Shown: piece by piece, positions 7,767 through 36,696 of the stretch
How positions within the stretch are numbered: the stretch's first letter is position 1
How the letters are laid out: every line of letters starts with the position of its first letter
Sequence record: PV467748.1
Direction: 5' to 3' (one strand)
DNA from: a phage
DNA: 64,000 nt
The notes under the pieces: generated by a model
What the model saw: only the letters and a program-made list of their open reading frames with translations
The model's database searches: none
Told to the model about the DNA's origin: nothing
Translations under genes and position numbers: made by a program

Positions 7767-8441
7767 TTATCGATTTTTTACACTTAACGGGTCCGGATTC
7801 TCAGGGACATCTTCCAGGCCCAAGGCATAACGTTGAGCATATTTCAGCATCAAGATGTCCTTGGCACAGTCATGGATAGAGTCATGAGCAACAAAGCCAT
7901 TCAATGTTCCGTTAGGCAGAGGACACATGCTCAATCCGCGAGTCAGTGAATAGGCTTCGATAGCCGTACGGATATCACGTTGGTTCCAGAATTTAACCGG
8001 TTCTAATTTACTGGTATCAATTTCATTCTCAGGAACACCTTCAGAACGATAAGCATCGCGAATAAGGTCGACTAAGATAGGAAAGTCAAATGACATTCCA
8101 CGACACCACATCTGTGATTTCCACTGGTCCACTTCGTTTTTACGGCAGTATTCCAGGAAATTACCGAGACCGATAGAAGTGCTCACATCAATTTCAGATG
8201 GCGCCAGGTTTTTACGTGCTTCAGGCCCTTGCTCCTTCCACCACTGCAACGTGCTTTTAGAAAACAGTCGTTTATCACGTTGAGAAGCGAGGTCAAATTT
8301 AATACGAAGGCCGCGTTGAGTAAGCTCTTCAAACGATTCTACTACCTCTGGATTAGGGTCATAAGCAATTACGGCGAGGTCAATAACCGCTGCATTTTGG
8401 GTAGTGGCAAAGGTTTCAAAGTCAATAATTATATCTTTCAT
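7767..8441 (-). CDS. dexA: exonuclease A (DEDD-type 3'-5' exonuclease)
   Basis: IIIDFET (Exo I) and HDSIHDC (Exo III) motifs; 224 aa; position upstream of dda as in T4. Confidence 0.75.
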   Translation of the reverse strand: MKDIIIDFETFATTQNAAVIDLAVIAYDPNPEVVESFEELTQRGLRIKFDLASQRDKRLFSKSTLQWWKEQGPEARKNLAPSEIDVSTSIGLGNFLEYCRKNEVDQWKSQMWCRGMSFDFPILVDLIRDAYRSEGVPENEIDTSKLEPVKFWNQRDIRTAIEAYSLTRGLSMCPLPNGTLNGFVAHDSIHDCAKDILMLKYAQRYALGLEDVPENPDPLSVKNR

Positions 8442-8677
8442 TTAACGTACCTCATAAGGTCTCGGATTTGGCCGACCGTATAGTCTTCAATATAAACCGA
8501 AGAGATATTGTCGTCCATCAGTTTTTGCACCGCAATAAAATCACTTTCAATCTCTTTAAGAGAGTTCAGGACAGTATGGGCCTTTTGCCTAATGCCGATA
8601 TTATTTTGGTTGACTTTAATAATATATTCCGTCTCGAATTTCAACTTATAAAACTGGTCTTTAGTTACTTTAATCAT
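8438..8677 (-). CDS. hypothetical protein (dexA.1 position)
   Basis: ATG at 8677 with SD GAGGAAAAT. Confidence 0.4.
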   Translation of the reverse strand: MIKVTKDQFYKLKFETEYIIKVNQNNIGIRQKAHTVLNSLKEIESDFIAVQKLMDDNISSVYIEDYTVGQIRDLMRYVK

Positions 8678-8684
8678 ATTTTCC

Positions 8685-10016
8685 TCAAACATAATAGGCA
8701 TCAGTACGAGCACGGGTAATACTAACATAAGCCAGCTGTGAAGCTAAATTGGCATCTGCCATGTGCATGCACGGAGTATAGATGAAACTGTTTTGGACAG
8801 TAAGGCCCTGTGATTTATGAACGGTGCTCACCGGAAGAGCTCGAACCTTAGTGAACATTCTCTTAGCTTTCCAGAAATCAGCCCACTTAGGCTTCTTACC
8901 ACTACCACGCATGGCTTTGTACTCTGTAGCCACCTTAGCCAAGAAATAATGGAACTTCTCAACTGAAGCCTCATCGATAACCTTTAAATGCTCTACGTAG
9001 TACTCATCGTCTTCATCAACAGATTCAACCTGGAGGTCCCAGTAATTAATCATTTGACGAGTGCCTACATCCTTAGCAGACAAAAACAATGAGGTATGGT
9101 TCACATCCAGAATACGAACCATTTGCCCGTTGTTAAAAATGGTTTCAGAGAATTTCTTACCATCGTATTCAAGTTCCTTCATAAAAGGCTCTTGCATCAC
9201 TAGGATTTCACCCTTGATATAAGGTGCATCAGTTTCATAAAGCTTTTTACGAATAATGCTATTCAGCTTTTCAACCGATTTATTTGTATAAGCAAACATC
9301 CTATTTTCAAATAAGGCATCCGCGTCTTTTACGATGGAAAAATAATTCATCATAAAATCTTTTAAAGCCGTTTGAGATTTAAAACCATGGACCCCGTGAC
9401 CTTCAAATATACAATCTCTGAACCATCCACCGTTACGGATTTCAGTAGCAACCTCAATGATAGGAGCATTACTACGCATCACTTCAGTCAAATGTAATTG
9501 TTTGATTTTTGGATGTGTAAAGAATGGAGACAACTGAGGGCTACCATCACTTCCAGGTTCCACTGGCTGTAGCTGAGCTCTGTCGCCAATCCCTAATACA
9601 GTACACCATGGTGGCACGGAGGATTCAATAATCTTAAACAGCTTACCGTCAATCATCGAGCCTTCGTCAACAACTAGAACATTACATTTGCTCAAGTCAG
9701 GAGCTTCGCGTTGTTCAAAGATGTCCTGGTCTTCGTACGTAGTAGGGTTAATTTTTAGAATTCTATGAATTGTTGATGCTTCTTGACCTGCGAGTTTCGA
9801 CAATACCTTTTTGGCCGCATGAGTAGGCGCAGTCAAAATAACTCCGAGTTCACCATTCTTGACTAGATGGTCAAGAATAAATTTGGTAAGGGTTGTTTTA
9901 CCTGTACCAGCAGGACCGTTCAATGTAATCCATTCACCCTTACGTCGTTTAATAGCTTCAATGATTTCTTTAAAGGCAGTCCGTTGCCCAATATTCAAGT
10001 CTTCAAATGTAATCAT
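8685..10016 (-). CDS. dda: Dda DNA helicase (SF1)
   Basis: NGPAGTGKTT Walker A, VVDEGSM Walker B; near-collinear with remembered T4 Dda. Confidence 0.9.
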   Translation of the reverse strand: MITFEDLNIGQRTAFKEIIEAIKRRKGEWITLNGPAGTGKTTLTKFILDHLVKNGELGVILTAPTHAAKKVLSKLAGQEASTIHRILKINPTTYEDQDIFEQREAPDLSKCNVLVVDEGSMIDGKLFKIIESSVPPWCTVLGIGDRAQLQPVEPGSDGSPQLSPFFTHPKIKQLHLTEVMRSNAPIIEVATEIRNGGWFRDCIFEGHGVHGFKSQTALKDFMMNYFSIVKDADALFENRMFAYTNKSVEKLNSIIRKKLYETDAPYIKGEILVMQEPFMKELEYDGKKFSETIFNNGQMVRILDVNHTSLFLSAKDVGTRQMINYWDLQVESVDEDDEYYVEHLKVIDEASVEKFHYFLAKVATEYKAMRGSGKKPKWADFWKAKRMFTKVRALPVSTVHKSQGLTVQNSFIYTPCMHMADANLASQLAYVSITRARTDAYYV

Positions 10017-14413: not shown

Positions 14414-14929
14414 TTAATAGCCATTATCCTGACGCTCAAAGTTAGCTTTATTTTTCAGATAATAAAGTTTGAACAATTCTTCAGCGGACATATTAAGGCC
14501 GATAGCCATGTTTAATACAAAATGGATTATATCCACAAGTTCAAATTTAATTTCAAGCTGGTCTTCAGGAGACATTTCTGAAATAGGTTTAGCTTGTGCT
14601 TCTTGATAACGAGCTTTCCATTTTTTCCAGACGGCAGATGCATCTTTTTCACCTTTAGACATTTCACCAAGTGAAGTTAAAAGTTCACGGAATTCATCAT
14701 CAATACAGTCTTTCTGCTCACGCATCCAGGCAACAACATCGCCTGCAGTGGCCAGTTTATCCGGGTGGTAACAATAATCGCGGTCATTAGCCAGACGAAC
14801 CTGCAATGATTTCTGCATATCAAGCATAACTTGCAGTGGGTCGGTGCCTTTGATAATTGCGTTATCATAAGCCAGAGCAGCTTTATCAACACCTGCAATA
14901 AGTTGTGAGCATTCGTTAAAGTGTGCCAT
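14414..14929 (-). CDS. 56: dCTP pyrophosphatase (dCTPase/dUTPase, MazG-like)
   Basis: position after soc and before primase; ATG at 14929 with SD AAGGAAAAA; track start is an upstream TTG. Confidence 0.65.
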   Translation of the reverse strand: MAHFNECSQLIAGVDKAALAYDNAIIKGTDPLQVMLDMQKSLQVRLANDRDYCYHPDKLATAGDVVAWMREQKDCIDDEFRELLTSLGEMSKGEKDASAVWKKWKARYQEAQAKPISEMSPEDQLEIKFELVDIIHFVLNMAIGLNMSAEELFKLYYLKNKANFERQDNGY

Positions 14930-20255: not shown

Positions 20256-20569
20256 CTCTTAGATTTAATTTTATCCAGTTCTTCTTGTATTTGCATTGTA
20301 ACACATTTTTCTACATGAAGCGCTAGCTCTTCTTTTCGGTCTTCGGAAGGTGTTCCGAAATCAACCGACACTTTTCCATCTTTCTCAATAACAATATTCA
20401 TCACATAAACGATGTGAGCAGTGCCATCAGGTAATGTAAGCATAATTTCCTGCTTAACAGAACCCATTGACTTACGGATTATATCTAATGATTTCTCATA
20501 ATAACGAGGGTCACTAGGACCCTCTTCGGTATCTTTAACAAAATTATCTAAATCAGATAAATCAGTCAT
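20240..20569 (-). CDS. 40: gp40-like protein (109 aa)
   Basis: position between 41 and uvsX as in T4; sequence not verified. Confidence 0.45.
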   Translation of the reverse strand: MTDLSDLDNFVKDTEEGPSDPRYYEKSLDIIRKSMGSVKQEIMLTLPDGTAHIVYVMNIVIEKDGKVSVDFGTPSEDRKEELALHVEKCVTMQIQEELDKIKSKRWWKW

Positions 20570-21743
20570 GGTCGCTCACAAAATTCATATTTTCTAAATC
20601 GTTTTCGATATCAGCTGCGCTTTGAGTGTCGCCACTCAATTTAACTGCAACGTTCTTAGAGACACGAGAGTTAATAAGGTCGTTCACCGCATCATCGACT
20701 TCTTTAATAGAATTAATTGCACCAAGCTTATACTTATTCTCGATTGCTTCACGGAACGGGGCATGTTTAAACAGTGGTCCCCAGAACTCGACACAATCGG
20801 TAGCTTTAGCACGCCATGATTTTTCTTCTTGAACCATTTCACCTGTGGTTTCGTCAAGGAATGCACGATTATACCAACCAGCTTTAGGTTTCACAACAAA
20901 GCCAATATCAGTAGCCATTTCAAGCAATCCACTGAATGGGTCGATACCACCTTCAAAGTTCACAGTAATTGGGAACGTTGATTTCTCTTTAACAGTACGA
21001 GATTTTTCGGCCTTCAGGGTGAAGTCATAACCAGTGAGCTCGGTGCCATCTTTAACCTGACGTTTAGAGATAAAGAATACGGTAGAAGCAGAGTACAGAA
21101 TACCGGTACCGCCACCCATAATCTCTTTAGGATACATTCCACCAATTTCCATAGCCGTATGGTTAATTGCTACACAAGGGATATCCTTGATGGTCAGATA
21201 AGGTGTTACGATACGGAACAGAGATTTCAGTGACTTAGCACGGGTCATATCACCTACAACTTTCTCGTTCAAAGCATCTTCGGTTTCTTTCTTAGAAGCG
21301 GTGTTACCGATGGAGTCGATAAAGATAATAACCTTTTCGCCACGAGTAATTTCTTCTAATTGGTTGGTCATATCAACTTTAAGCTGTTCGACTGACTGGA
21401 TTGGAGTATGGACTACTCGTTCCAAATCAACACCCATCGAACGGAAATAAGATTCTGAAGCACCAAACTCAGAGTCATAGAACAAACAAATTGCGTCTGG
21501 ATATTTCTTCATATATGCCGCAACCATGGTAAGTCCAAACAACGTTTTAAAGTGTTTAGATGGAGCAGCAAAGATTGTCAAACCTGATTGTAAGCCTGCA
21601 TTCAACGCACCGCCTAATGCAATATTCAGCATAGGGATACGAGTAGGAACTTCGTCACGACCATTAAACAATTTAGATTTGGTCAGGTCGGCAGTCATTT
21701 TAGAAGTAGAAGCTTTAATCAAACGGGATTTTAAATCAGACAT
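20562..21743 (-). CDS. uvsX: UvsX recombinase (RecA/Rad51-like)
   Basis: 393 aa; near-collinear with remembered T4 UvsX. Confidence 0.9.
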   Translation of the reverse strand: MSDLKSRLIKASTSKMTADLTKSKLFNGRDEVPTRIPMLNIALGGALNAGLQSGLTIFAAPSKHFKTLFGLTMVAAYMKKYPDAICLFYDSEFGASESYFRSMGVDLERVVHTPIQSVEQLKVDMTNQLEEITRGEKVIIFIDSIGNTASKKETEDALNEKVVGDMTRAKSLKSLFRIVTPYLTIKDIPCVAINHTAMEIGGMYPKEIMGGGTGILYSASTVFFISKRQVKDGTELTGYDFTLKAEKSRTVKEKSTFPITVNFEGGIDPFSGLLEMATDIGFVVKPKAGWYNRAFLDETTGEMVQEEKSWRAKATDCVEFWGPLFKHAPFREAIENKYKLGAINSIKEVDDAVNDLINSRVSKNVAVKLSGDTQSAADIENDLENMNFVSDHD

Positions 21744-21820
21744 TATATTTTTCCATAGGCATCATTATATTTTACTCACGTTTTAAGATAGGGTAATTAT
21801 ATCACTTCACATTTACAGCG

Positions 21821-22714
21821 TTAAAGGACCACGTCCTCATAACTTGGCATTTCGTGCTCAGAATGGATATGGGCACCGAAATAAATGAATTCAGCTAGAC
21901 CAGGATGGAATACTAAACCAGGATTCTCATGATAAATGATATGAGGTCTTGATTTCAGAATCTGATAATATTCAACCTTACTCGGTTTGAATTTAATAAT
22001 CTCTACATCAGGACGATAGTCTTCACGTTTAAATGAATCATTCGGATCGGTGATATAAAGACGAGCACCTTCAGCTGCAGCTTGGTCTACAACTCTTTCG
22101 AATTGATAGCACTTATCTGAAATACGGAATGGGTGGAAAATACCATCAATTTTAATAGGCGCTAGACCATCAGAGTAACGCTCAATTACTGCAGGATTAA
22201 TTACCTTTTGGTCTACAAAAATCTTATCAGAGGACGCACCTCGTGACACCAGGACGTCTTTCTGGCATTGGTTCAAGACCGTAGTATAAATCGAACGTTC
22301 AACTGAAGACACGTCGGTATCAATAAACTCATCGATGTAATAACGAGGAACTTCAGGGTCCATTGTAATGTTAAAGTTGAATTGTACAGTATGGGCACCA
22401 TCATAACCAGTGATATCGGTTACTAAGCCTGAGCAGTCATAGTATTCTATTAACGAATCAACAACGAACTCATTTTCGGACCAAAAATGTTTACGGGTTT
22501 CATAAGCATTTTCTTTATACCAAAGTGGTACGAAATTCAGTTCTGGGAATAATTCAATGCATTCTTTGATATCGCTCGAATTTCTAGGATAAGCCAGATA
22601 ATCACCTGGGCAAGCACGGTTTAAATGGAGTTGGAAATTACCGTCCTTAAGGACGGCATATTCACCTGTTTCGTAACTACGCATACTGAAAATAGGAACG
22701 ATAAACAAACTCAT
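21821..22714 (-). CDS. hypothetical protein (297 aa) in the beta-glucosyltransferase slot; candidate DNA glycosyl/modification transferase
   Basis: sits between uvsX and 42 where T4 has beta-gt, but does not resemble remembered T4 beta-gt. Confidence 0.3.
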   Translation of the reverse strand: MSLFIVPIFSMRSYETGEYAVLKDGNFQLHLNRACPGDYLAYPRNSSDIKECIELFPELNFVPLWYKENAYETRKHFWSENEFVVDSLIEYYDCSGLVTDITGYDGAHTVQFNFNITMDPEVPRYYIDEFIDTDVSSVERSIYTTVLNQCQKDVLVSRGASSDKIFVDQKVINPAVIERYSDGLAPIKIDGIFHPFRISDKCYQFERVVDQAAAEGARLYITDPNDSFKREDYRPDVEIIKFKPSKVEYYQILKSRPHIIYHENPGLVFHPGLAEFIYFGAHIHSEHEMPSYEDVVL

Positions 22715-23409
22715 TTCAGGAAACCTCGGACGTAGTCAAAATCACGTTCAAACACGTGTGCACTTACCATGGTGTGGGAATATGTACCTAAACCGACACC
22801 ACACTGTTCAGCAATAAAGGCCATCAGTTTACCCTGCAGATAGAAATCCAGCTGCATAACAATAGCACAGTTCTGTGAACGCATATGGGTATGTGCATAA
22901 AGACGTCCATCACGAATATAATATGTTACCGAATCGGTACATGGATATTCTAAGGATTCGTCAGAATCAAGGAGGGCTTGGTCTTGTTCTTGGAGAATCT
23001 GGAACACAACGCGTCTTGAGTTAGGTTTCTCTTTAAGCTCTTTAAGTAGGGCTGGGAGTTGGGCCACAATTCGGGGTCCATAGAAAGTGTTGAAGTTTGC
23101 AGGCAATACGTCACTTTTCGGCTTATCAATGAACTTAGCAACATTAGGATATTCCTTAAATGCTTCGGCGGCGTCAGTACCACCGGAAATCATAAACTTC
23201 CAGAAAGATTCGGCATAATCATAGTTGATACGATTAATACGAGGGTCGGTGAACTTGAATGTGCTTGCATCCAGTACTTCAACTGAAGCAGAACCAATTT
23301 CATAACAACGGCCGATACGAGAATCAACTGCAAACTGTGGAGCTTCCAGGATTTCTTCGTTCATTTGCTTAAACGCGTTTTCAAAACTAACAGCGGTAAT
23401 GTGTTTCAT
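22711..23409 (-). CDS. 42: dCMP hydroxymethylase (thymidylate-synthase fold)
   Basis: EYPCTDSVTYYIRDGRLYAHTHMRSQN aligns with remembered gp42 catalytic-Cys region; NSRRVVFQIL. Confidence 0.7.
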   Translation of the reverse strand: MKHITAVSFENAFKQMNEEILEAPQFAVDSRIGRCYEIGSASVEVLDASTFKFTDPRINRINYDYAESFWKFMISGGTDAAEAFKEYPNVAKFIDKPKSDVLPANFNTFYGPRIVAQLPALLKELKEKPNSRRVVFQILQEQDQALLDSDESLEYPCTDSVTYYIRDGRLYAHTHMRSQNCAIVMQLDFYLQGKLMAFIAEQCGVGLGTYSHTMVSAHVFERDFDYVRGFLK

Positions 23410-23948
23410 TTATTCACCTTATTTTCAATATATTCATTCAGACGTTTTAATTCTACCATATCGACGTTAAGCAAGTTATTATAACCGTCGTGATTTAAGA
23501 TTTTAAACACGTTTTCAAAACATGTTTCATATTGGCGGATAGTTAGGTTGAACTCATCTTTGGTTAATTTAATAAGGTCATCTTCAAAGTCTTTATCCAG
23601 TGGATTACGGGTTAAAATAACCTCAATAATATTGAATTCAGATTTAAACCTTTTCCAATCTTCCAGTTCTACATAAGGGTCCATTTCACCACGAAGGAAT
23701 CCCGAGTAAACAATATTACTTGGATAACCACGGTCAAGGATGTAAACGAAATTAGGGTCTAAAAACTTATACAACGTCTCGACTAAAGCCTTGTCATTAT
23801 CGGTCCCTAATGAAATGCATTTGCCATTAATCTTTTTAGGGAAATCAATAAGACGATATTTCTTATCAGAATCAGATAAAAGCGATTCAATTAAAGTAGA
23901 CTTCCCGGAATTATCCGGGCCGTCGATAACAATGATTTTTGGTTTCAC
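23406..23948 (-). CDS. P-loop nucleotide kinase, thymidylate-kinase-like
   Basis: Walker A IIVIDGPDNSGKSTLI; Tmk-like LDRGYPSNIVYSG motif; no counterpart at this position in T4. Confidence 0.6.
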   Translation of the reverse strand: MKPKIIVIDGPDNSGKSTLIESLLSDSDKKYRLIDFPKKINGKCISLGTDNDKALVETLYKFLDPNFVYILDRGYPSNIVYSGFLRGEMDPYVELEDWKRFKSEFNIIEVILTRNPLDKDFEDDLIKLTKDEFNLTIRQYETCFENVFKILNHDGYNNLLNVDMVELKRLNEYIENKVNK

Positions 23949-24319
23949 GGATGATATGCCTTATAGGTTTCAAGAGTTCCTTCACGAACCATTTCTTTAA
24001 AGTGGTCAGGACGGATTGCTCGGTCATCGATGATAAAAGTATAACTTGGTTTATGCGTAAGCAAATTATGATATTTCAAACCAATCTTTTCAAGGTTCTT
24101 AACCAATGCGGGAACTACTTCAACTAAGATTCGACCCGGGCCGCATGAAGTCATGCCACGAGCAGTGAACAACGTAATCTCGTGGCCTTCATCATAAAGC
24201 TTATTAATCATGGACACCATTTCGGTGTCAGGTTTAAAGTTTTCGTAATCACGATTAGAGTCCCAGACCGTGATTGTGTTATCGATATCAAAACACAGAT
24301 GCATTAAATTTTCTTCCAT
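23945..24319 (-). CDS. HAD-superfamily phosphatase (small, capless)
   Basis: motif I CFDIDNTIT (DxDxT), motif II LFTAR, motif IV IIDD. Confidence 0.6.
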   Translation of the reverse strand: MEENLMHLCFDIDNTITVWDSNRDYENFKPDTEMVSMINKLYDEGHEITLFTARGMTSCGPGRILVEVVPALVKNLEKIGLKYHNLLTHKPSYTFIIDDRAIRPDHFKEMVREGTLETYKAYHP

Positions 24320-26007
24320 TGTTTGTGGAGTTCAGTAGAACCTGTAGGTTTATATTTTACACCGGTTTCCTGGTCAAGCAAAACCCACTTATCAGGACAA
24401 CGAGTGATAATTTGAGCCGTGATAGGGCCACGAACTTCATCGACAAATTCACCTGTAATAAGCTTACGCTTACGAGGATGCCGCTTCAGCAGCACACTCA
24501 GTTGGTATAGACCGTTGTAATAAGCACCCAGAGCTTTCAGAGGATTATTCTTAAAGTAACCTGCCAGTGCCATCCAAATAACGGCAATCCAGAGCTTGTG
24601 CTTAAATGTACACATCGGAATATCATCTAAAGACATAACCTTTTCAATATCAACGAATACACGAGTTCCGTTACGAGTTAATCCGCCCCATAGAGGGTCA
24701 GAGTTAAATTTGTCATAGCCATCGATAGAATAAAGCACCTTAGCTTCGTCATAAATCGCAGGGCCTTTAGAACTATTACCAAAATAACCACGTGGGTCGA
24801 TGATTTTAATATCACCTTCGTCCGACAACATAATATTACTGTAGTGCGGGTCACCATGAATAAGTTGGTATGGTTCTTTATGTTCAGACAGAATTTCTAG
24901 TGCATGGCGAAGAAGTTTTTCAGGGTCGCCTACCTTAAAGTCGTTAACATGGGTAATACCCTGTGGGGCAAAGCCTTCAATCAATCCGGCAATAGAAGCA
25001 TTACGAATCAGGACCTTGTCCAATACTTCTTTCTTAACATCAGAATACCATTGCTCATCGGACGGATTATCGATAGTTCCACCGAATGAACGTAATGCAC
25101 TAATGACCTTATAAACCATGAGGACTTTAGTTTCTTTAGACATAAACCGATAGGCATCTGCCATGGTGCGACCAAAGATACGTTCCATTTTAATGAATTC
25201 GCCTGGAGCAAAGTCTACAATGCTCGGAACAAATTCAGAATCAATAGAATTATACCAATTGATTTCTTTAGATTGGATTTCTTTACCTAATTCGTTGGTA
25301 GGTACTTTAATAGCCAGATTCTCAGTGAACTCTAATTTATTAAATTCACGGTTAATTTCAGAATCTTCATGGGCCCTAGCCAGTTTCAATTTGTCACCGA
25401 CATCAACCACAAAGTCCAGCTTACGTTCAGTCAAATGGACCATCGAATCCAGGTTGTCTGCAAGGTCTTCGCCATAATTAGAACGGTCGAAACCTGTCCA
25501 ATTAGCCACCTGATACAAACCAACCACACCACCGCCAGTACCAATTTCACGCAAGTACGGTTCTTCAAATGTAAAACGACAGTCGGTCCCATAGGTATAA
25601 CAGTAGTCGTTATCCCACTCAACTTTATGACCTTCAGGAATAATATCACACCAGTTAAACAAGACATTATGCCCGATGATATCTTCGGCAATGCAATCGA
25701 TAGCATGAGCTGAACCATTGGCGACGTCTACGTTACGAATAGTGAATTTAGGCTTATCACTGGTAATCATGTTAATGGATTTAATGTAACCCTTAACGAG
25801 GTCATTAAATTTGCTGTGAATAACCAGAATAATTTCATCTGATTGGTTACTATACAAATCATACAAATGTTTTAGTACTGTATGCTGTTTGTAGTTAACC
25901 AATACCTTCGGGATTTCGTTAGTAATTGGATACAACCGTGAGCCAAGACCCGCTCCTAAAATAACAACCTTTTTCATTATCTGTTCCTCAAGTGAATGTA
26001 GGTACAT
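24304..26007 (-). CDS. bifunctional nucleotidyltransferase (N-term) / small-molecule kinase (C-term) fusion, 567 aa
   Basis: N-term VVILGAGLGSRLYPITNEIPKVLV (sugar- or choline-phosphate nucleotidyltransferase signature); C-term HGDPHYSNIML...IKIIDP (APH/choline-kinase-like catalytic loop). Confidence 0.65.
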   Translation of the reverse strand: MYLHSLEEQIMKKVVILGAGLGSRLYPITNEIPKVLVNYKQHTVLKHLYDLYSNQSDEIILVIHSKFNDLVKGYIKSINMITSDKPKFTIRNVDVANGSAHAIDCIAEDIIGHNVLFNWCDIIPEGHKVEWDNDYCYTYGTDCRFTFEEPYLREIGTGGGVVGLYQVANWTGFDRSNYGEDLADNLDSMVHLTERKLDFVVDVGDKLKLARAHEDSEINREFNKLEFTENLAIKVPTNELGKEIQSKEINWYNSIDSEFVPSIVDFAPGEFIKMERIFGRTMADAYRFMSKETKVLMVYKVISALRSFGGTIDNPSDEQWYSDVKKEVLDKVLIRNASIAGLIEGFAPQGITHVNDFKVGDPEKLLRHALEILSEHKEPYQLIHGDPHYSNIMLSDEGDIKIIDPRGYFGNSSKGPAIYDEAKVLYSIDGYDKFNSDPLWGGLTRNGTRVFVDIEKVMSLDDIPMCTFKHKLWIAVIWMALAGYFKNNPLKALGAYYNGLYQLSVLLKRHPRKRKLITGEFVDEVRGPITAQIITRCPDKWVLLDQETGVKYKPTGSTELHKQWKKI

Positions 26008-26037
26008 TATACACTATTTTTAATAAATTGGTATTGC

Positions 26038-26538
26038 TTAAATCTTATCTTTACCGATTTCAATACACTGTTCTATTGCCGCCGGTACTTTGGTCTTGAG
26101 CTTATCGATTTGTTTCTTATAATCACGAGCTTTACCGAAGCTCTCGGTTTCGAGCATTTCGTAATAACGAGCCTCGTGGATGGAAATCTGTAGATTGATA
26201 TGATTTACACACATCGCATACAGTTTCTGCTTTTTGTACAAATCATCTTGACGCTTCATTTCTGCCTGGTGTTTGGCTAGTACCGCTTCACGCTTAGACT
26301 CTTGTTCACGTTGGAATTCGATTTCCCTTTGAGCATATTTTGCACAGTTATTACCGCATTGATTATTAGCTCGGGTATACACAAGTCCGGAACCAGCACG
26401 GAATTTCATTTCACCGTCATATTGTTTCTGTTCAGCTGCGATACGAGCTTTACCAACTTCATCAGCCGAAACTGCATCGCCATATTGGACCGCGCAACCT
26501 GATAGGAGCATACTCATTGCGATAATTAACTTTTTCAT
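26038..26538 (-). CDS. predicted lipoprotein (166 aa)
   Basis: signal peptide with lipobox LSGC; helical, charged remainder. Confidence 0.5.
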   Translation of the reverse strand: MKKLIIAMSMLLSGCAVQYGDAVSADEVGKARIAAEQKQYDGEMKFRAGSGLVYTRANNQCGNNCAKYAQREIEFQREQESKREAVLAKHQAEMKRQDDLYKKQKLYAMCVNHINLQISIHEARYYEMLETESFGKARDYKKQIDKLKTKVPAAIEQCIEIGKDKI

Positions 26539-26545
26539 AATATCC

Positions 26546-26683
26546 TCAATTAAAACAGTTATACTTAATTTGTGCTATAAGAATAATCCATCCAATGATG
26601 AGTGTCGGAATCATTGGCGGAATTGCCACTGCCCAGTAAATGGTAAAGGCAGACATTATAAGAAATAAAATAATTATTTTCAT
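26546..26683 (-). CDS. small membrane peptide (45 aa), not in the ORF track
   Basis: MKIIILFLIMSAFTIYWAVAIPPMIPTLIIGWIIL...; ATGA overlap with the imm stop. Confidence 0.3.
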   Translation of the reverse strand: MKIIILFLIMSAFTIYWAVAIPPMIPTLIIGWIILIAQIKYNCFN

Positions 26684-26916
26684 TGCTTGACAATAATGAT
26701 TTGTGCATTTGATTTACGTTCAGCGACGATGGCCCAGATTAAAGCCACTACCCAACCAATCATCGTCCAACCCAACAGGAGGTTTAGGAAGAAAATTCCG
26801 ACATTACTACGAGTGCCTCGCAGAAGAGCCAGAATCCATGGTAAAAAGTAACCGATGAACATAATAACCAGAGAACCGAATCCTAAAACACCAGCACTAA
26901 CGATTAAAGCTTCCAT
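26680..26916 (-). CDS. imm: superinfection immunity protein Imm
   Basis: 78-aa two-TM protein with LNLLLGWTMIGWVVALIWA motif; position between 43 and 42. Confidence 0.65.
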   Translation of the reverse strand: MEALIVSAGVLGFGSLVIMFIGYFLPWILALLRGTRSNVGIFFLNLLLGWTMIGWVVALIWAIVAERKSNAQIIIVKQ

Positions 26917-26935
26917 TGTAATTTCCTCATGTAGT

Positions 26936-26978
26936 TGATAGGAAGGATATTACCACGTTCCTTGTGGTATGTAAACAC
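26936..26978 (-). promoter_or_regulatory. T4-type early promoter upstream of imm
   Basis: minus GTTTACATACCACAAGGAACGTGGTAATATCC. Confidence 0.5.
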
Positions 26979-29690
26979 TTAAAAGTCGAACATATCAAAT
27001 AATGTTGCTTTTTTCTCGTAGTCGATTTTAGCAGACTCAGTAAAACCGGTCAGAGGCTTGATAAAGGTCTTTTGGAACAGTACGTTGTAGTCCATCCAAC
27101 GGAGGACCTGGTCGCGAATCTGAACCGGGAGTTCAATACCTGACGGCCATGCCATACAAGCTTCACCGAACGGGTTGCCTTCTTTAAGCGGCAGTACATA
27201 TACCTTTTCACCATCAACGATACGAGGCATAGTCAAATCACCCGCAGAAGCACGCATGTAAGCTAAGCAACCTTTGATGTGGTATGGGCATTTAGAACCA
27301 GGGAATCCGCCTTCATTATATTTCTCGATGTTGTTAGCACTGGATACTGCTGCAATGCTTACATAATCGAGTTCGTTAAATTCCTTATTAAACTGTTTGA
27401 AATATTCTTGCAAAGATGCCTCGCCTTCCTGAAGCATACGACGGATACATTCCTTCAGAGCTTTCTGAACTGCTTTAGGTGTACTTGATTTCTGAGTTTC
27501 GAGACCCATGATTTTCAAGTGTGGTTCAGCATAACGAGTACCTTCCATGTCCCAAACGTTAAGTGCATAACGTTTCTTGCCTGTCCAGAATCCACCAAGG
27601 CCTTTAGAACCAAGTGGAGGACCTGCGATAGCTTCTCGGTCCATGAACATCAAGTGTTGTTTGTTGTTCATGTACTCGCACATCTCACGGAAGCCTGCAT
27701 CAATAGCCGGTTCCATACGTTCGCGTGCAAATTTATCTAAGAAGTCAACCCAGTGGTTAGTATCACGGAATTTATCTTCGCCTACTTTATTGATGATTGC
27801 ATCCGCCTTAACATAAATGGAGTCAGTATCACCATAGAGCACGAACTTCTGATTTTCAGTCTTACACACGCTATTCAGATATTCGTTAACCTTACGTTCA
27901 ATCCATTGGAGGGCCATTTGACCAAACAGTGTGATTGCAGTTGCGTTCCTGAGGTCATAATAACGGAACCATACGTTACCAAGTGCACCATAAAGGGAGT
28001 TGATAAGCAACTTACGGTTAATCTGAGCAGTGTTACCTGCAACTTCAGTGAGCTCGGCTTTCTTCAACATTTCTCTTAAAGAAGGCGCTGACAGTGCTTT
28101 AATCTGGGCTTTGATTTCGTCAGAGAAGTCAAAACGATAATCGATATCCAGTGGACTATCAACTGAGAGATTAGGATTTTCCAATGCTTCTTTAATTAAC
28201 TCGCCATTACGTTGAGCTGCAAGCATGTAACCTTTATGTTCTTTACGCTGTAAGAACACCTTCGTGATTTCTGTCGGAATCACACCTTCACGGTCTTTAT
28301 AATACATCATACCGTTAGGAGAGCAACTGTAGGTGTCGCTAGGACGCTGAGCAGTTCCGGCAATATATTCATGTATCGGCGCGTTGGCGAATGTCCCTGC
28401 GATGGTCTCTGGGCTTATATTCACTTGTCGAATGATACTCGGGTACAGAGATGTAAGGTCGAAACTCATTACATATTTGTAAGCGTTAGGAATCGGTTCC
28501 TTAACGAAAGCACCAGGATAAGGTTGGACCACGTGTGAACGAGCTTGTGGAATTACCTTGCCTTGTTCTTTAAGGCTATTAAAGATAATAGCGTCCCAAG
28601 TCTTAATTGGACTAAACACCGACTGAATCTGCATCTTGGCATAATAACCCATGTCCAAACTCAGAAGAATGAACTGACGCTTCATATCAATCTGCACTAC
28701 ACGATATACGTCGATAATGTTATAGGAAATATATCGTTGGTGGTTCGTCTCACGTAACTTAGAGATTGGACCATCATATTTCAACTTACCCACTTTCAAT
28801 TCATATTCAGAAACATAATCCAGAGAATAAGAAGGCTGGTTGGTGAAGCTGAATTTTTTATAGAGGTCGATATAATCCAGAACAGAGATACCGAACAATG
28901 TAATGATTTCACGAGCACCGTACATGTTCTCAATAACTTTAACACGAGTTTTACGATGTGGGCTTAATCGCTTAGCAGTGTTCTCACCGAACAGATTTTT
29001 CAGACGGTTATAAACGTACGGTACGTCAAACGACTCAACGTTCCATCCAGTCAAAATCACAGGAGTTTTCTGTTGCCAGAAATTCAAGTACTCAAGCATC
29101 ATTTCTTCTTCAGAATTAAACGGAAGATAAACGATTTTGTCAATGATTTCCTGTGGAACTTCGTCACCACCTTCGTCTTGGAGTTTCTCAGCGATTTTAA
29201 TCGACCACTCTTCAACAGTACCATAAGGCGAAACTAAAAGGTCGAATACATAGAATTTATCGTCAATCGAGTCGTAGTGGGTAATGGCATCGATAGGATG
29301 TTTAGCCTGAGCTGGTTCAGGGAATCCATCAGGAGATGTTACCTCGATGTCGAAGTTAGCAATACGAATCTTAGAAGAATCATATTTGATTTCTTTACGA
29401 TAGGTATCAGACAAATAGGCTAATTTATAGTCGTCCATACCCAGGGCTTCGAGACCCATATCATCCATACGTTTCATCCATTGGGATGCATCACGCATAG
29501 AATCGAATTCTTTCTTAACACAACCCTTACCATAGATATCAATGTATTTTACGGCTTGCTCTGGATTAGCATGCATAAACATTGTAGGCTTGTATGGAAC
29601 TTCACGACTACGTTCGTTACCATTTTTATCGATGTAACGTTCGAGAATATTATCACCGATTTGTTCGACTGTCAAATAGAATTCTTGCAT
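26979..29690 (-). CDS. 43: DNA polymerase (family B), start refined to MQEFYLTVEQIG
   Basis: 903 codons; FDIEVT exonuclease motif, YGDTDS polymerase motif; collinear with remembered RB69/T4 gp43. Confidence 0.95.
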   Translation of the reverse strand: MQEFYLTVEQIGDNILERYIDKNGNERSREVPYKPTMFMHANPEQAVKYIDIYGKGCVKKEFDSMRDASQWMKRMDDMGLEALGMDDYKLAYLSDTYRKEIKYDSSKIRIANFDIEVTSPDGFPEPAQAKHPIDAITHYDSIDDKFYVFDLLVSPYGTVEEWSIKIAEKLQDEGGDEVPQEIIDKIVYLPFNSEEEMMLEYLNFWQQKTPVILTGWNVESFDVPYVYNRLKNLFGENTAKRLSPHRKTRVKVIENMYGAREIITLFGISVLDYIDLYKKFSFTNQPSYSLDYVSEYELKVGKLKYDGPISKLRETNHQRYISYNIIDVYRVVQIDMKRQFILLSLDMGYYAKMQIQSVFSPIKTWDAIIFNSLKEQGKVIPQARSHVVQPYPGAFVKEPIPNAYKYVMSFDLTSLYPSIIRQVNISPETIAGTFANAPIHEYIAGTAQRPSDTYSCSPNGMMYYKDREGVIPTEITKVFLQRKEHKGYMLAAQRNGELIKEALENPNLSVDSPLDIDYRFDFSDEIKAQIKALSAPSLREMLKKAELTEVAGNTAQINRKLLINSLYGALGNVWFRYYDLRNATAITLFGQMALQWIERKVNEYLNSVCKTENQKFVLYGDTDSIYVKADAIINKVGEDKFRDTNHWVDFLDKFARERMEPAIDAGFREMCEYMNNKQHLMFMDREAIAGPPLGSKGLGGFWTGKKRYALNVWDMEGTRYAEPHLKIMGLETQKSSTPKAVQKALKECIRRMLQEGEASLQEYFKQFNKEFNELDYVSIAAVSSANNIEKYNEGGFPGSKCPYHIKGCLAYMRASAGDLTMPRIVDGEKVYVLPLKEGNPFGEACMAWPSGIELPVQIRDQVLRWMDYNVLFQKTFIKPLTGFTESAKIDYEKKATLFDMFDF

Positions 29691-29747
29691 TTCATTTCCT
29701 TTATAGACGAGTGATTGTCTTTTGTTTGTTGATGAATCATTATACTC

Positions 29748-29772
29748 CAAAAGGGACCGAAGTCCCTTTGCT
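29748..29772 (-). terminator. UUCG-tetraloop hairpin upstream of gene 43 (terminator and/or translational operator region)
   Basis: aagggac-cgaa-gtccctt; followed on the transcript by TATAAT. Confidence 0.45.
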
Positions 29773-35232: not shown

Positions 35233-35470
35233 CCTTGATGCATGATTCAGCCATATGAATTAATGTTTCTGGAGTATCATCTACCATTACATTAAAGCTA
35301 AATTCTACAGCCCAATCAGTGGCAACATAAACTTTAATAAGCTCGTTGGTATCACGAGTGCTCACGGCTTCAAACCAGAACTTAATAATACTCGTTTGTC
35401 CATCGTCATCAATAACTGTGCAGTCATGCTCCAGTTCAAGTCCTGATTTTTTGAATTCATCTAAAGTCAT
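35207..35470 (-). CDS. hypothetical protein (87 aa)
   Basis: ORF only. Confidence 0.4.
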   Translation of the reverse strand: MTLDEFKKSGLELEHDCTVIDDDGQTSIIKFWFEAVSTRDTNELIKVYVATDWAVEFSFNVMVDDTPETLIHMAESCIKDAYNDENV

Positions 35471-36489
35471 CGTGTAACCTCATTATAAAGTTGTGCAGCC
35501 ATAGTCTTAAGGGCTTTAACATCGTCTTCGGTGTGACCATCAGGAAGGGCATCGATATAATCATACATCATATCCAAGAGGGACTTAACTTCATCTTCCT
35601 CTTCAGAATCATCGATATCAACGCTGTTATCTACCTTAGACACAATACGTAAAGAGTGAACAACCTTTTCAAGTTCAGATTCGAACTTGGTAAGCCCGTC
35701 ATCAATTTTATCGACTATAACACGAACCGCAATATTTGTAAAATCTTTGTAATCGATAGTCGCATTCGGGTAATGAATCTTACGATGCCAACAGGTTTCA
35801 TTGATGATGAAATCCATTTTATGCGTTTCTGTATCGAAAATCCAGAAGCCACGAGGGTCGTTCTCATCACCGGCAGTTAGGGTCCATGGCGTACCAATAT
35901 ACTTAACGTTTGCCGCATCAGAAATGGTGTGGAAGTGGCCAGACCATACTTGCTTATACTTCTTAAGGAAATCAGGTTCTAAACCATGTGATTTCATTCC
36001 TTTATAGAAATAGAAACCATTTAATTCCCAGTGGCCAATACAGAAATCTGCTGTAGTATTTTTGATATGGTCCATGATATCGGTCGTGTTTTCTTCACAC
36101 ATCCATGGAATCAAATCAATTTCGGTGCCATCAAAGTTAACCGTAGTAGGTTTTTCAATAACCTTGATATGGTCGTATTTACCCAGAACTTCAGAAGCCG
36201 CGTTCGGCGTCAGGGTGTTTTTGTAGTGCATATCATGGTTGCCAACGATAGTATACATGGTAATGCCGTTGGCTTTAAGCAAATCAGAGATTTCGCGAGC
36301 GAATTCCATACACTTATGGGTAATTGCTTTACGAACGTCAAAGATATCACCGTATTGAATCCATACAGTAATGCCATTTGCTTTAGAATAATTAATAGCG
36401 TCTTGGATACCTTGACGTTGGATATTTTGTACCCACACATCATCGGCCTTCACTCCAAGGTGCCAGTCACCTGTGTTTAATATTTTCAT
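35467..36489 (-). CDS. 47: recombination endonuclease subunit (Mre11/SbcD-like phosphoesterase), start refined to MKILNTGDWHLG
   Basis: GDWHLG, GNHD, GHFH phosphoesterase motifs. Confidence 0.9.
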   Translation of the reverse strand: MKILNTGDWHLGVKADDVWVQNIQRQGIQDAINYSKANGITVWIQYGDIFDVRKAITHKCMEFAREISDLLKANGITMYTIVGNHDMHYKNTLTPNAASEVLGKYDHIKVIEKPTTVNFDGTEIDLIPWMCEENTTDIMDHIKNTTADFCIGHWELNGFYFYKGMKSHGLEPDFLKKYKQVWSGHFHTISDAANVKYIGTPWTLTAGDENDPRGFWIFDTETHKMDFIINETCWHRKIHYPNATIDYKDFTNIAVRVIVDKIDDGLTKFESELEKVVHSLRIVSKVDNSVDIDDSEEEDEVKSLLDMMYDYIDALPDGHTEDDVKALKTMAAQLYNEVTR

Positions 36490-36629
36490 AAGCCAAGCAC
36501 CGTTATTGCAATGCAAAATAAAATTATTGAAATGACCCCGTCAGGAGTGGAAAAGAATCCTATCCAACAAGCTCGTGTGAATGTGTAGAATGCCATGAAT
36601 AACACGACATATCCTAAAAGTAGTTCCAT
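36486..36629 (-). CDS. small hydrophobic peptide (47 aa), not in the ORF track
   Basis: SD GAGGAG before ATG at 36629; stop overlaps gene 47 start (ATGA). Confidence 0.35.
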   Translation of the reverse strand: MELLLGYVVLFMAFYTFTRACWIGFFSTPDGVISIILFCIAITVLGL

Positions 36630-36639
36630 ATGTTCTCCT

Positions 36640-36678
36640 CAGTTGGTTCATTTTATCATCCGAATATAAAGCAAAAAA
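36640..36678 (-). promoter_or_regulatory. candidate MotA-dependent middle promoter
   Basis: minus TTTGCTTTAT followed ~12 nt later by TAAAAT; directly after the terminator hairpin. Confidence 0.35.
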
Positions 36679-36696
36679 GGAGCCTAAGCTCCTTTA
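36672..36696 (-). terminator. hairpin aggagc-ctaa-gctcct
   Basis: inverted repeat with U-run on the transcript. Confidence 0.45.

Follow-up and report, generated by a model that had tools for sequence, protein, structure and literature searches.

The DNA of phage RB69 and of Acinetobacter phage DLP3 carries mono- to tri-arabinosylated 5-hydroxycytosine (PMC13326640). The RB69 modification was first reported as arabinosyl-5-hydroxymethylcytosine (arabinosyl-hmC) (PMC6024577). It was then revised by nuclear magnetic resonance and mass spectrometry to a C5 ether, arabinosyl-5-hydroxycytosine, and the earlier assignment was called erroneous (PMC13326640; PMC13390438). Dhakaviruses are named among the genera with a syntenic gene cluster (Lee et al., PMC13326640, Fig. 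4). Herein, a cassette of five genes at positions 21821-26007 of the phage sequence PV467748.1 is compared with these systems; the whole analyzed stretch of 64,000 nucleotides is called the window. The cassette is, with high probability, the Dhakavirus version of the Straboviridae arabosyl- (arabinosyl-)5-hydroxycytosine (ara-5hoC) DNA hypermodification pathway. This kind of pathway and its presence in the genus are already published, having been described in 2018 and resolved in 2025-2026, and are no longer new.

The enzymes of the described systems have been assigned as follows. RB69 gp48 and DLP3 gp80 convert dCMP to 5-hydroxy-dCMP (5hodCMP), taking the oxygen from O2 with a bound flavin, and RB69 gp48 makes 5hodCMP in vivo with incorporation of 18O2 (PMC13326640). 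For the sugar donor of phage HY126, the account of He et al. 2026 given in PMC13326640 has AfhE phosphorylate arabinofuranose 5-phosphate to the 1,5-bisphosphate, AfhF take off the 5-phosphate, and the nucleotidyltransferase domain of AfhE then yield UDP-arabinofuranose. Beside the activities of the 5hodCMP synthase, AfhE and AfhF, published work places ara-5hoC in the DNA of RB69, DLP3, HY126, Bas46/47, 92A1, and Thanatos.

The region 21700-26100 matched 736 phage records. The best match was Escherichia phage KIT01 with 96.1% identity, followed by Bp7, WG01, QL01, MX01, and IME08, all of the genus Dhakavirus (Straboviridae, Tevenvirinae). The window begins at rIIA, the conventional genome start, and KIT01, the closest complete genome, was used to stand in for the genes beyond the 64-kb window. 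The five cassette genes all lie on the minus strand between uvsX and the gp43 DNA polymerase gene. The bounds and the gene inventory given in the initial annotation agree exactly with the ends of the open reading frames (ORFs). These genes encode a 567-aa nucleotidyltransferase/kinase (24304-26007), a 124-aa capless HAD phosphatase (23945-24319), a 180-aa Tmk-like P-loop kinase with a GTG start (23406-23948), a 232-aa thymidylate synthase (TS) homolog (22711-23409), and a 297-aa GT-B glycosyltransferase (21821-22714). When RB69 proteins were compared with the window by tblastn, all five cassette proteins were found to be orthologs of RB69 proteins (gp52:53, gp51, gp45, gp48, and gp46:47, respectively), with 38-79% identity and likewise a gp43-uvsX position. 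In T4, segA and beta-gt lie between uvsX and gene 42, and imm and imm.1 lie between genes 42 and 43; the cassette is absent from both segments. The initial annotation, which had described extra non-T4 genes forming a DNA-hypermodification cassette, is thus borne out by these five orthologs.

From the 567-aa gene towards the 297-aa gene, the neighboring cassette genes overlap by 16, 4, 4, and 4 nt. This indicates translational coupling of the five genes. The evidence for an operon is limited to these overlapping stop and start codons, and no operon boundary is claimed beyond them. Scans of 21600-27100 gave 17 promoter sites against 18.3 expected from shuffled sequence and 2 terminators against 4.1 expected, with no excess in either case. 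The cassette set co-occurs in at least five Straboviridae lineages, and the DNA of those lineages is arabinosylated where tested (PMC13326640). Both coupling and co-occurrence speak against ordinary nucleotide-salvage enzymes, which the initial annotation had named as the outcome contrary to its proposal, and against auxiliary metabolic enzymes of host takeover. Under such a reading, the cassette would encode a thymidylate kinase, a heptose-pathway phosphatase, and a GlmU-like enzyme acting on envelope precursors. The database names 'thymidylate kinase', 'phosphoheptose isomerase', 'thymidylate synthase', and 'bifunctional protein GlmU' agree with it, and so do NCBIfam matches, all of them far under curated cutoffs. 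However, no family match of this kind attains its curated cutoff, the genes are coupled with those of the 5hodCMP synthase and the glycosyltransferase, and elsewhere KIT01 encodes td, a true thymidylate synthase, as well as a gp1 deoxynucleoside monophosphate (dNMP) kinase. The salvage-enzyme reading was rejected because every such family match falls far under its cutoff, and it is regarded as extremely improbable.

The modified base is assigned from the TS homolog, a thymidylate synthase superfamily member (Pfam PF00303). This protein is 79% identical to RB69 gp48, 81% to its counterpart in Serratia phage 92A1, 71% in Shewanella phage Thanatos-1 (Thanatos), and 87% in a Klebsiella Marfavirus, and 24% identical to T4 gp42. 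A sequence search of the PDB returned 9iqu and 9iqc/9ir2 (E=5e-126) and T4 dCMP hydroxymethylase 1b49 (E=3e-6). The 9iqu and 9iqc/9ir2 chains are near-identical to RB69 gp48 and share a deposition series with an entry named 'phage HY126 glycosyltransferase'. Residues were mapped by alignment with E. coli ThyA, T4 gp42, and RB69 gp48. In this alignment, Cys157 corresponds to the catalytic C146 of ThyA, Glu154 occupies the L143 position (L143E), and Asp188 occupies the N177 position (N177D), which confers dCMP selectivity. Asn180 stands at the D169 position (D169N), where T4 gp42 has Asp. D169N is present in every 5hodCMP-producing homolog, and nine further D169N enzymes that were tested all gave 5-hydroxydeoxycytidine (Lee et al., NAR 2026, PMC13326640). 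With T4 gp42 as the query, nothing else was found in the complete KIT01 genome.

For the 'gene 42' protein, the prediction is a 5-hydroxy-dCMP synthase that uses flavin and O2, rather than a dCMP hydroxymethylase. The Asn180 signature, the identity of 79% versus 24%, and the lack of a gp42 ortholog in KIT01 together indicate that the expected base is 5-hydroxycytosine (5hoC) and not hmC. The predicted modified base is 5hoC with arabinose ether-linked at C5. The competing structure is arabinosyl-hmC, in which a gp42-type dCMP hydroxymethylase would act and the hydroxymethyl group would be decorated with arabinose or another non-glucose sugar. It is compatible with the superfamily membership, with the Asp at N177 and the acidic residue at L143 that the TS homolog shares with T4 gp42, and with the original RB69 report (PMC6024577). 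It is very unlikely in view of the much lower identity to T4 gp42 than to the 5hodCMP-making RB69 gp48, the Asn180 at D169, and the revision of the RB69 structure to the C5 ether (PMC13326640; PMC13390438). The initial annotation had this phage keep a dCMP hydroxymethylase and make hmC DNA, and both statements are replaced here by the 5-hydroxy-dCMP synthase signature and its product. Its mention of arabinosyl-hmC in RB69-like phages was correct for the arabinose and wrong for the hmC (PMC13326640; PMC13390438).

A dCTPase is kept, as had been noted. It is a gp56 homolog encoded at 14417-14929 on the minus strand, with a Pfam dUTPase_2 match of 28.8 bits against a cutoff of 22.9. Its supporting function would be to keep unmodified dCTP out of the phage DNA and to provide dCMP. 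The KIT01 genes beyond the equivalent of the window include gp1 dNMP kinase, td, denA, denB, and alc. Together with the dCTPase, these are in keeping with the exclusion of cytosine from the phage DNA. Separately, the dCTPase is only 73% identical to KIT01 gp56, though the cassette DNA is 96% identical to that of KIT01 and the cassette proteins are 96-99% identical to those of Bp7. This suggests mosaic exchange of the gp56 gene among Dhakaviruses.

The sugar-donor enzymes are encoded in the upstream half of the cassette. The 567-aa protein is predicted to combine an N-terminal sugar-1-phosphate nucleotidyltransferase with a C-terminal APH-like sugar kinase, and is the ortholog of DLP3 gp82 and HY126 AfhE. 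Pfam NTP_transferase matches residues 13-110 (34 bits, cutoff 21.2), and Pfam APH matches residues 356-427 (26.2 bits, cutoff 23.2). The motifs are GAGLGSRL at 18-25 (GxGxRL), HGDPHYSN at 384-391 (HGDxxxxN), and IIDPRG at 402-407 with the downstream Asp. The protein aligns over its full length with RB69 gp53:52, 92A1, TH1_060, and DLP3-like proteins. The identity is 41-44% to RB69 (gp53 44%, gp52 41%), 47% to 92A1, 44% to Thanatos TH1_060, and 80% to Marfavirus. The listed ORF is probably over-extended by 10 codons, with the real start at the second ATG (25977), giving 557 aa. This start is preferred because a GAGG lies 8 nt upstream of it, the homologs align from residue 7-11, the PHROG alignment begins at residue 11, and the shorter form is the one annotated in KIT01. 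The first ATG is overlapped by a TATAAT hexamer (26006-26011).

The HAD protein, the ortholog of RB69 gp51 and HY126 AfhF, is predicted from its sequence to be an arabinofuranose-1,5-bisphosphate 5-phosphatase. It carries the DxDxT motif at residues 11-15 and is 64% identical to RB69 gp51, 67% to 92A1, 57% to Thanatos, and 88% to Marfavirus. It matches PDB entries 9iqw (E=1.1e-54) and 1xpj (E=1e-11); the latter is the fold match also given for RB69 gp51 and DLP3 gp81 (PMC13326640). The match to the EcbF-BcbF capsule phosphatase family TIGR01689 (E=1.7e-14) is under the curated cutoff. The Tmk-like kinase, the ortholog of RB69 gp45 and DLP3 gp78, is present in all five lineages compared, with identities of 38% to RB69 gp45, 39% to 92A1, 44% to Thanatos, and 75% to Marfavirus. 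It matches PHROG 761 'thymidylate kinase' (E=9e-40) and has the P-loop GPDNSGKST (GxxxxGKST) at residues 10-18; no PDB sequence match was found. The earlier proposal that a kinase, a phosphatase, and a nucleotidyltransferase build a nucleoside diphosphate (NDP)-sugar donor agrees with the HY126 orthologs, which act in that order in the account given in PMC13326640.

The 297-aa protein is the ortholog of RB69 gp46:47 and DLP3 gp79. It had no Pfam, NCBIfam, or PDB sequence match, and its family comprises 117 sequence clusters, all without annotation. In structure prediction, it models confidently as a GT-B glycosyltransferase. The identity is 67% to RB69 gp46:47 (p047 70%, p046 64%), 44% to 92A1, 51% to Thanatos, and 68% to Marfavirus; RB69 p047 and p046 are one gene split by a sequencing error (PMC13326640). 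The gene lies in the T4 beta-gt slot, directly downstream of the TS homolog and translationally coupled to it. The protein is a putative first (base-proximal) DNA arabinosyltransferase.

Several components known from other phages are absent. No tblastn match to the arabinose-5-phosphate isomerase (RB69 gp55/DLP3 gp83) was found in the window or the whole KIT01 genome, and the same two sequences hold no homolog of the RB69 U32 peptidase-like gp50 and gp49. A homolog of the second glycosyltransferase (RB69 gp3) is likewise missing from the window and KIT01, where the slot from rIIA.1 to gene 39 has only small ORFs. T4 alpha-gt and beta-gt gave no tblastn match at E<=0.01 in the window or the KIT01 genome, and in the alpha-gt slot of the window only a 167-bp gap (36517-36683) separates gene 47 from a-gt.2. 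The absence of alpha-gt, as first reported, is thus upheld, and so is the proposal of a sugar other than glucose. The alpha-gt slot varies within the genus: KIT01 has a 256-aa hypothetical ORF in place of the gap. This ORF (KIT01_059, KIT01 35348-36118) was considered as a second glycosyltransferase candidate and rejected, being absent from the window and giving only a 37-residue match at chance level.

In the phage database, matches were found in 368 records for the nucleotidyltransferase/kinase, 353 for the first glycosyltransferase, 276 for the isomerase, and 222 for the U32 protein. The isomerase is missing from about 90 of the 368 nucleotidyltransferase/kinase records, and from the Marfavirus and Thanatos loci as well. 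Forms without the isomerase and forms without the U32 protein are common variants, and the Dhakavirus form, lacking both, is the smallest seen in this comparison.

The lack of an isomerase, together with the activating enzyme being the most divergent of the set, is the ground for a further alternative: the base would be 5hoC, with a sugar (e.g. another pentose) or a donor nucleotide (CDP- or GDP-linked) other than that of RB69. The nucleotidyltransferase/kinase is 41-47% identical to RB69, 92A1, and Thanatos, whereas the TS homolog and the HAD protein reach 64-81%, and the isomerase is absent from both the window and KIT01. Elsewhere, UDP-xylose pyrophosphorylase activity of Thanatos TH1_063 and a deoxypentose-like mass have been reported (PMC12838424), and the 5hoC of Rhizobium phage RL38J1 carries hexoses (PMC13326640). 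However, a nucleotidyltransferase/kinase divergence of about 45-53% is also found among phages that Lee et al. class as arabinosylating (Thanatos against RB69 53%, PMC12838424). The glycosyltransferase, which would have to recognize the donor, shares 67% identity with RB69 gp46:47, the phosphatase shares 64-67% with its RB69 and 92A1 counterparts, and the Marfavirus cluster and the Thanatos locus are without an isomerase too. It is also established knowledge that E. coli makes its own arabinose 5-phosphate for 3-deoxy-D-manno-octulosonic acid (Kdo) synthesis, through KdsD and GutQ. A different sugar or donor is, on balance, unlikely.

For the preferred ara-5hoC reading, the following pathway is proposed. 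The dCTPase (gp56) would yield dCMP, which the TS homolog would hydroxylate at C5 with flavin and O2 to 5-hydroxy-dCMP. This would be raised to the triphosphate by kinases, namely the T4-type gp1 dNMP kinase outside the window and possibly also the Tmk-like kinase, and the phage polymerase would put in 5hoC instead of C. In the sugar branch, the C-terminal kinase domain of the 557/567-aa enzyme would phosphorylate D-arabinose 5-phosphate at C1, the HAD phosphatase would strip the 5-phosphate to give arabinofuranose 1-phosphate (Araf-1-P), and the N-terminal nucleotidyltransferase domain would produce UDP-arabinofuranose. The 297-aa GT-B enzyme would then move arabinose onto the 5-hydroxyl, forming an ether-linked glycoside. 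The absence of a phage arabinose-5-phosphate isomerase and the presence of only one glycosyltransferase point to a host-fed arabinose 5-phosphate and to mono-arabinosylation. It is somewhat more probable that the product in this phage is mono-arabinosylated than that it is not, and a supply of arabinose 5-phosphate by the host (E. coli KdsD/GutQ) is favored to a similar, limited degree.

Orthology, diagnostic residues, fold, and gene content are established for this phage itself. We infer that the phage makes the ara-5hoC product, and likewise infer a role for the Tmk-like kinase and an addition of the first sugar either on DNA or on the nucleotide. Several points weigh against the proposed pathway. 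The literature search yielded no report of Dhakavirus nucleoside chemistry. The nucleotidyltransferase/kinase is only 41-47% identical to the experimentally tied orthologs, and its sugar or nucleotide specificity could differ. Three RB69 components are absent, namely the isomerase, the U32 peptidase-like gp50 with gp49, and gp3. Single purified glycosyltransferases showed no activity on 5hoC DNA (Lee et al., PMC13326640), so that the first transfer step is putative in every phage in the literature covered; the same authors cannot tell whether the first arabinose goes onto the nucleotide or onto DNA (PMC13326640). The Thanatos authors read their own sugar as deoxypentose or xylose-related (PMC12838424).

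There is a small but appreciable chance that the minimal Dhakavirus cluster is not simply that of RB69 with fewer genes, and differs in the sugar or donor, in arabinosylation at the nucleotide stage, or in a base synthesis bound to O2. With no isomerase and a divergent activating enzyme, a different sugar or donor nucleotide may be loaded onto 5-hydroxycytosine. The Tmk-like kinase, which is universally co-conserved and redundant with gp1 for 5hodCMP, may owe its presence to addition of the first arabinose to the mononucleotide. If this is true, a dedicated kinase would be needed for arabinosyl-5hodCMP, and the polymerase would use a dNTP that is already glycosylated. Lastly, synthesis of the modified base may depend on O2 in Dhakaviruses, which have no U32/chorismate-mutase module.

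This last idea comes from observations on the relatives. The U32 proteins TrhP, RlhA, and UbiU/V are O2-independent, prephenate-dependent hydroxylases. In the relatives, the U32 protein matches Pfam Peptidase_U32 with 42-45 bits against a cutoff of 22, with a weak UbiU match (RB69 p049/p050 8257-9662; P545 9687-11089). In Marfavirus, a type II chorismate mutase ORF directly follows the U32 gene (CM_2, 39.5 bits against a cutoff of 27). Since known U32 proteins hydroxylate without O2 and with prephenate, the U32/chorismate-mutase pair could supply 5-hydroxycytosine under anaerobic conditions and so complement the O2-dependent TS homolog. Across RB69, Marfavirus, 92A1, and Thanatos, the U32 protein shows 79-86% conservation; neither Dhakaviruses nor Acinetobacter phages, which infect obligate aerobes, possess it. 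When searched against the phage database, it matched 0 Acinetobacter phages, compared with 57 Acinetobacter records for the nucleotidyltransferase/kinase. No link of the U32 cluster protein to prephenate was found in the literature searched, and gp50 is given only as a 'sugar or heterocycle reductase' (Lee et al., PMC13326640).

The cluster can now be compared with each described system. The Mosigvirus cluster (RB69 gp45-gp55; HY126 Afh; Bas46/Bas47; NicPhage) shares with the window the gp43-uvsX position, the dCTPase, and the lack of alpha-gt and beta-gt. Of the two, only the Mosigvirus cluster has the isomerase gp55, gp50, gp49, and the second glycosyltransferase gp3 between rIIA and gene 39. 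The Tmk-like gene lies between the HAD and TS genes in the window and next to uvsX in Mosigvirus, and imm and a 166-aa lipoprotein gene are inserted after gp43 in the window. Mosigviruses carry mono- and di-arabinosyl 5hoC, whereas only the mono form is predicted for the window. Thanatos (TH1_060-TH1_065) resembles the window in its lone glycosyltransferase (TH1_063, 51%) and in a locus without an isomerase. It is described as mono-arabinosylated (Lee et al., PMC13326640), and would be the closest functional analogue of the predicted product. Unlike the window, it keeps the U32-like protein (79% to RB69 gp50), and its host and lineage are different.

Marfavirus (e.g. vB_Kpn_P545) provides the closest sequences outside Dhakavirus. 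The order of nucleotidyltransferase/kinase, HAD, and Tmk genes is as in the window, with no isomerase, but a U32 peptidase-like gene and a chorismate mutase ORF lie between the Tmk-like and TS genes. These two genes were either lost by Dhakavirus or never present there. DLP3/Lazarusvirus (gp76-gp83) has the same base and sugar enzyme set and no U32 protein, with identities to the window of about 43-50%. DLP3 differs in its isomerase, its three glycosyltransferases (including gp76/gp77, additional arabinosyltransferases of GT4 type like RB69 gp3), and its tri-arabinosyl 5hoC (PMC13326640).

The T4 glucosyl-hmC system (gp42, gp56, gp1, alpha-gt, beta-gt) follows a common logic. A dCTPase and a TS-superfamily enzyme provide a modified dCMP that fully replaces C, a GT-B enzyme adds a sugar from a UDP donor, and the neighborhood is similar, with the 297-aa gene in the beta-gt slot. 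The chemistry differs: T4 uses folate-dependent hydroxymethylation and glucose, whereas flavin/O2 hydroxylation and arabinofuranose are predicted for the window. Unlike T4, the window has no sequence-level homology to alpha-gt or beta-gt. To our knowledge, E. coli has UDP-glucose but no NDP-arabinose, and for this reason the donor must come from phage enzymes.

The surrounding genes are all on the minus strand. The uvsX gene (20562-21743) lies downstream of the cassette. Upstream, a 166-aa predicted lipoprotein gene (26038-26538), a 36-codon ORF (about 26549-26656), imm (26680-26916), and the gp43 DNA polymerase gene (26979-29750) follow. The lipoprotein has an N-terminal MKKLIIAMSMLLSGC lipobox and is assigned to PHROG 1754 (function unknown), with no family match in Pfam or NCBIfam. 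It is kept in Bp7 (98%) and has no counterpart at the RB69, 92A1, Thanatos, or Marfavirus loci. With its gene lying next to imm, it may act in superinfection exclusion or in the envelope. The 36-codon ORF resembles RB69 p054 (58% to RB69 ORF054c, annotated 'similar to T4 42-imm intercistronic region') and is conserved between the lipoprotein gene and imm. As listed, the gp43 ORF has a TTG start about 20 residues ahead of MQEFYLTV..., a sequence similar to the typical N-terminus of T4-type gp43. Translation probably begins at the internal ATG, with the segment 29691-29750 upstream of it; Bp7 and KIT01 annotate 2712-nt genes.

The names in current records can be misleading. In RefSeq and PHROG-derived annotation (e.g. 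NC_019500, NC_031928), the HAD phosphatase is called 'phosphoheptose isomerase'. In Dhakavirus records, the 5hodCMP synthase is named 'thymidylate synthase' or 'dCMP hydroxymethylase', and the glycosyltransferase and the nucleotidyltransferase/kinase are each a 'hypothetical protein'. The cluster corrects the widespread names 'dCMP hydroxymethylase', 'thymidylate synthase', 'phosphoheptose isomerase', 'thymidylate kinase', and 'GlmU'.

The remaining interest lies in the minimal gene set, the unexplained Tmk-like kinase, and the missing U32/chorismate-mutase pair that related enterobacterial phages keep. The minimal set marks the isomerase, the U32/chorismate-mutase pair, and the extra glycosyltransferases as dispensable parts, and makes this phage a convenient choice for rebuilding the core pathway. 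For sequencing, it matters that nanopore basecalling fails on DNA of this kind. Phages with ara-5hoC resist type I-III restriction, a Brig1-type glycosylase, and some CRISPR systems, and are targeted by GmrSD/BrxU-type enzymes (PMC13326640, PMC13390438, PMC13216743). Dhakavirus DNA should share those resistances and the GmrSD/BrxU-type vulnerability. This is of use in the choice and engineering of therapeutic coliphages, as many Dhakaviruses are candidate therapy phages.

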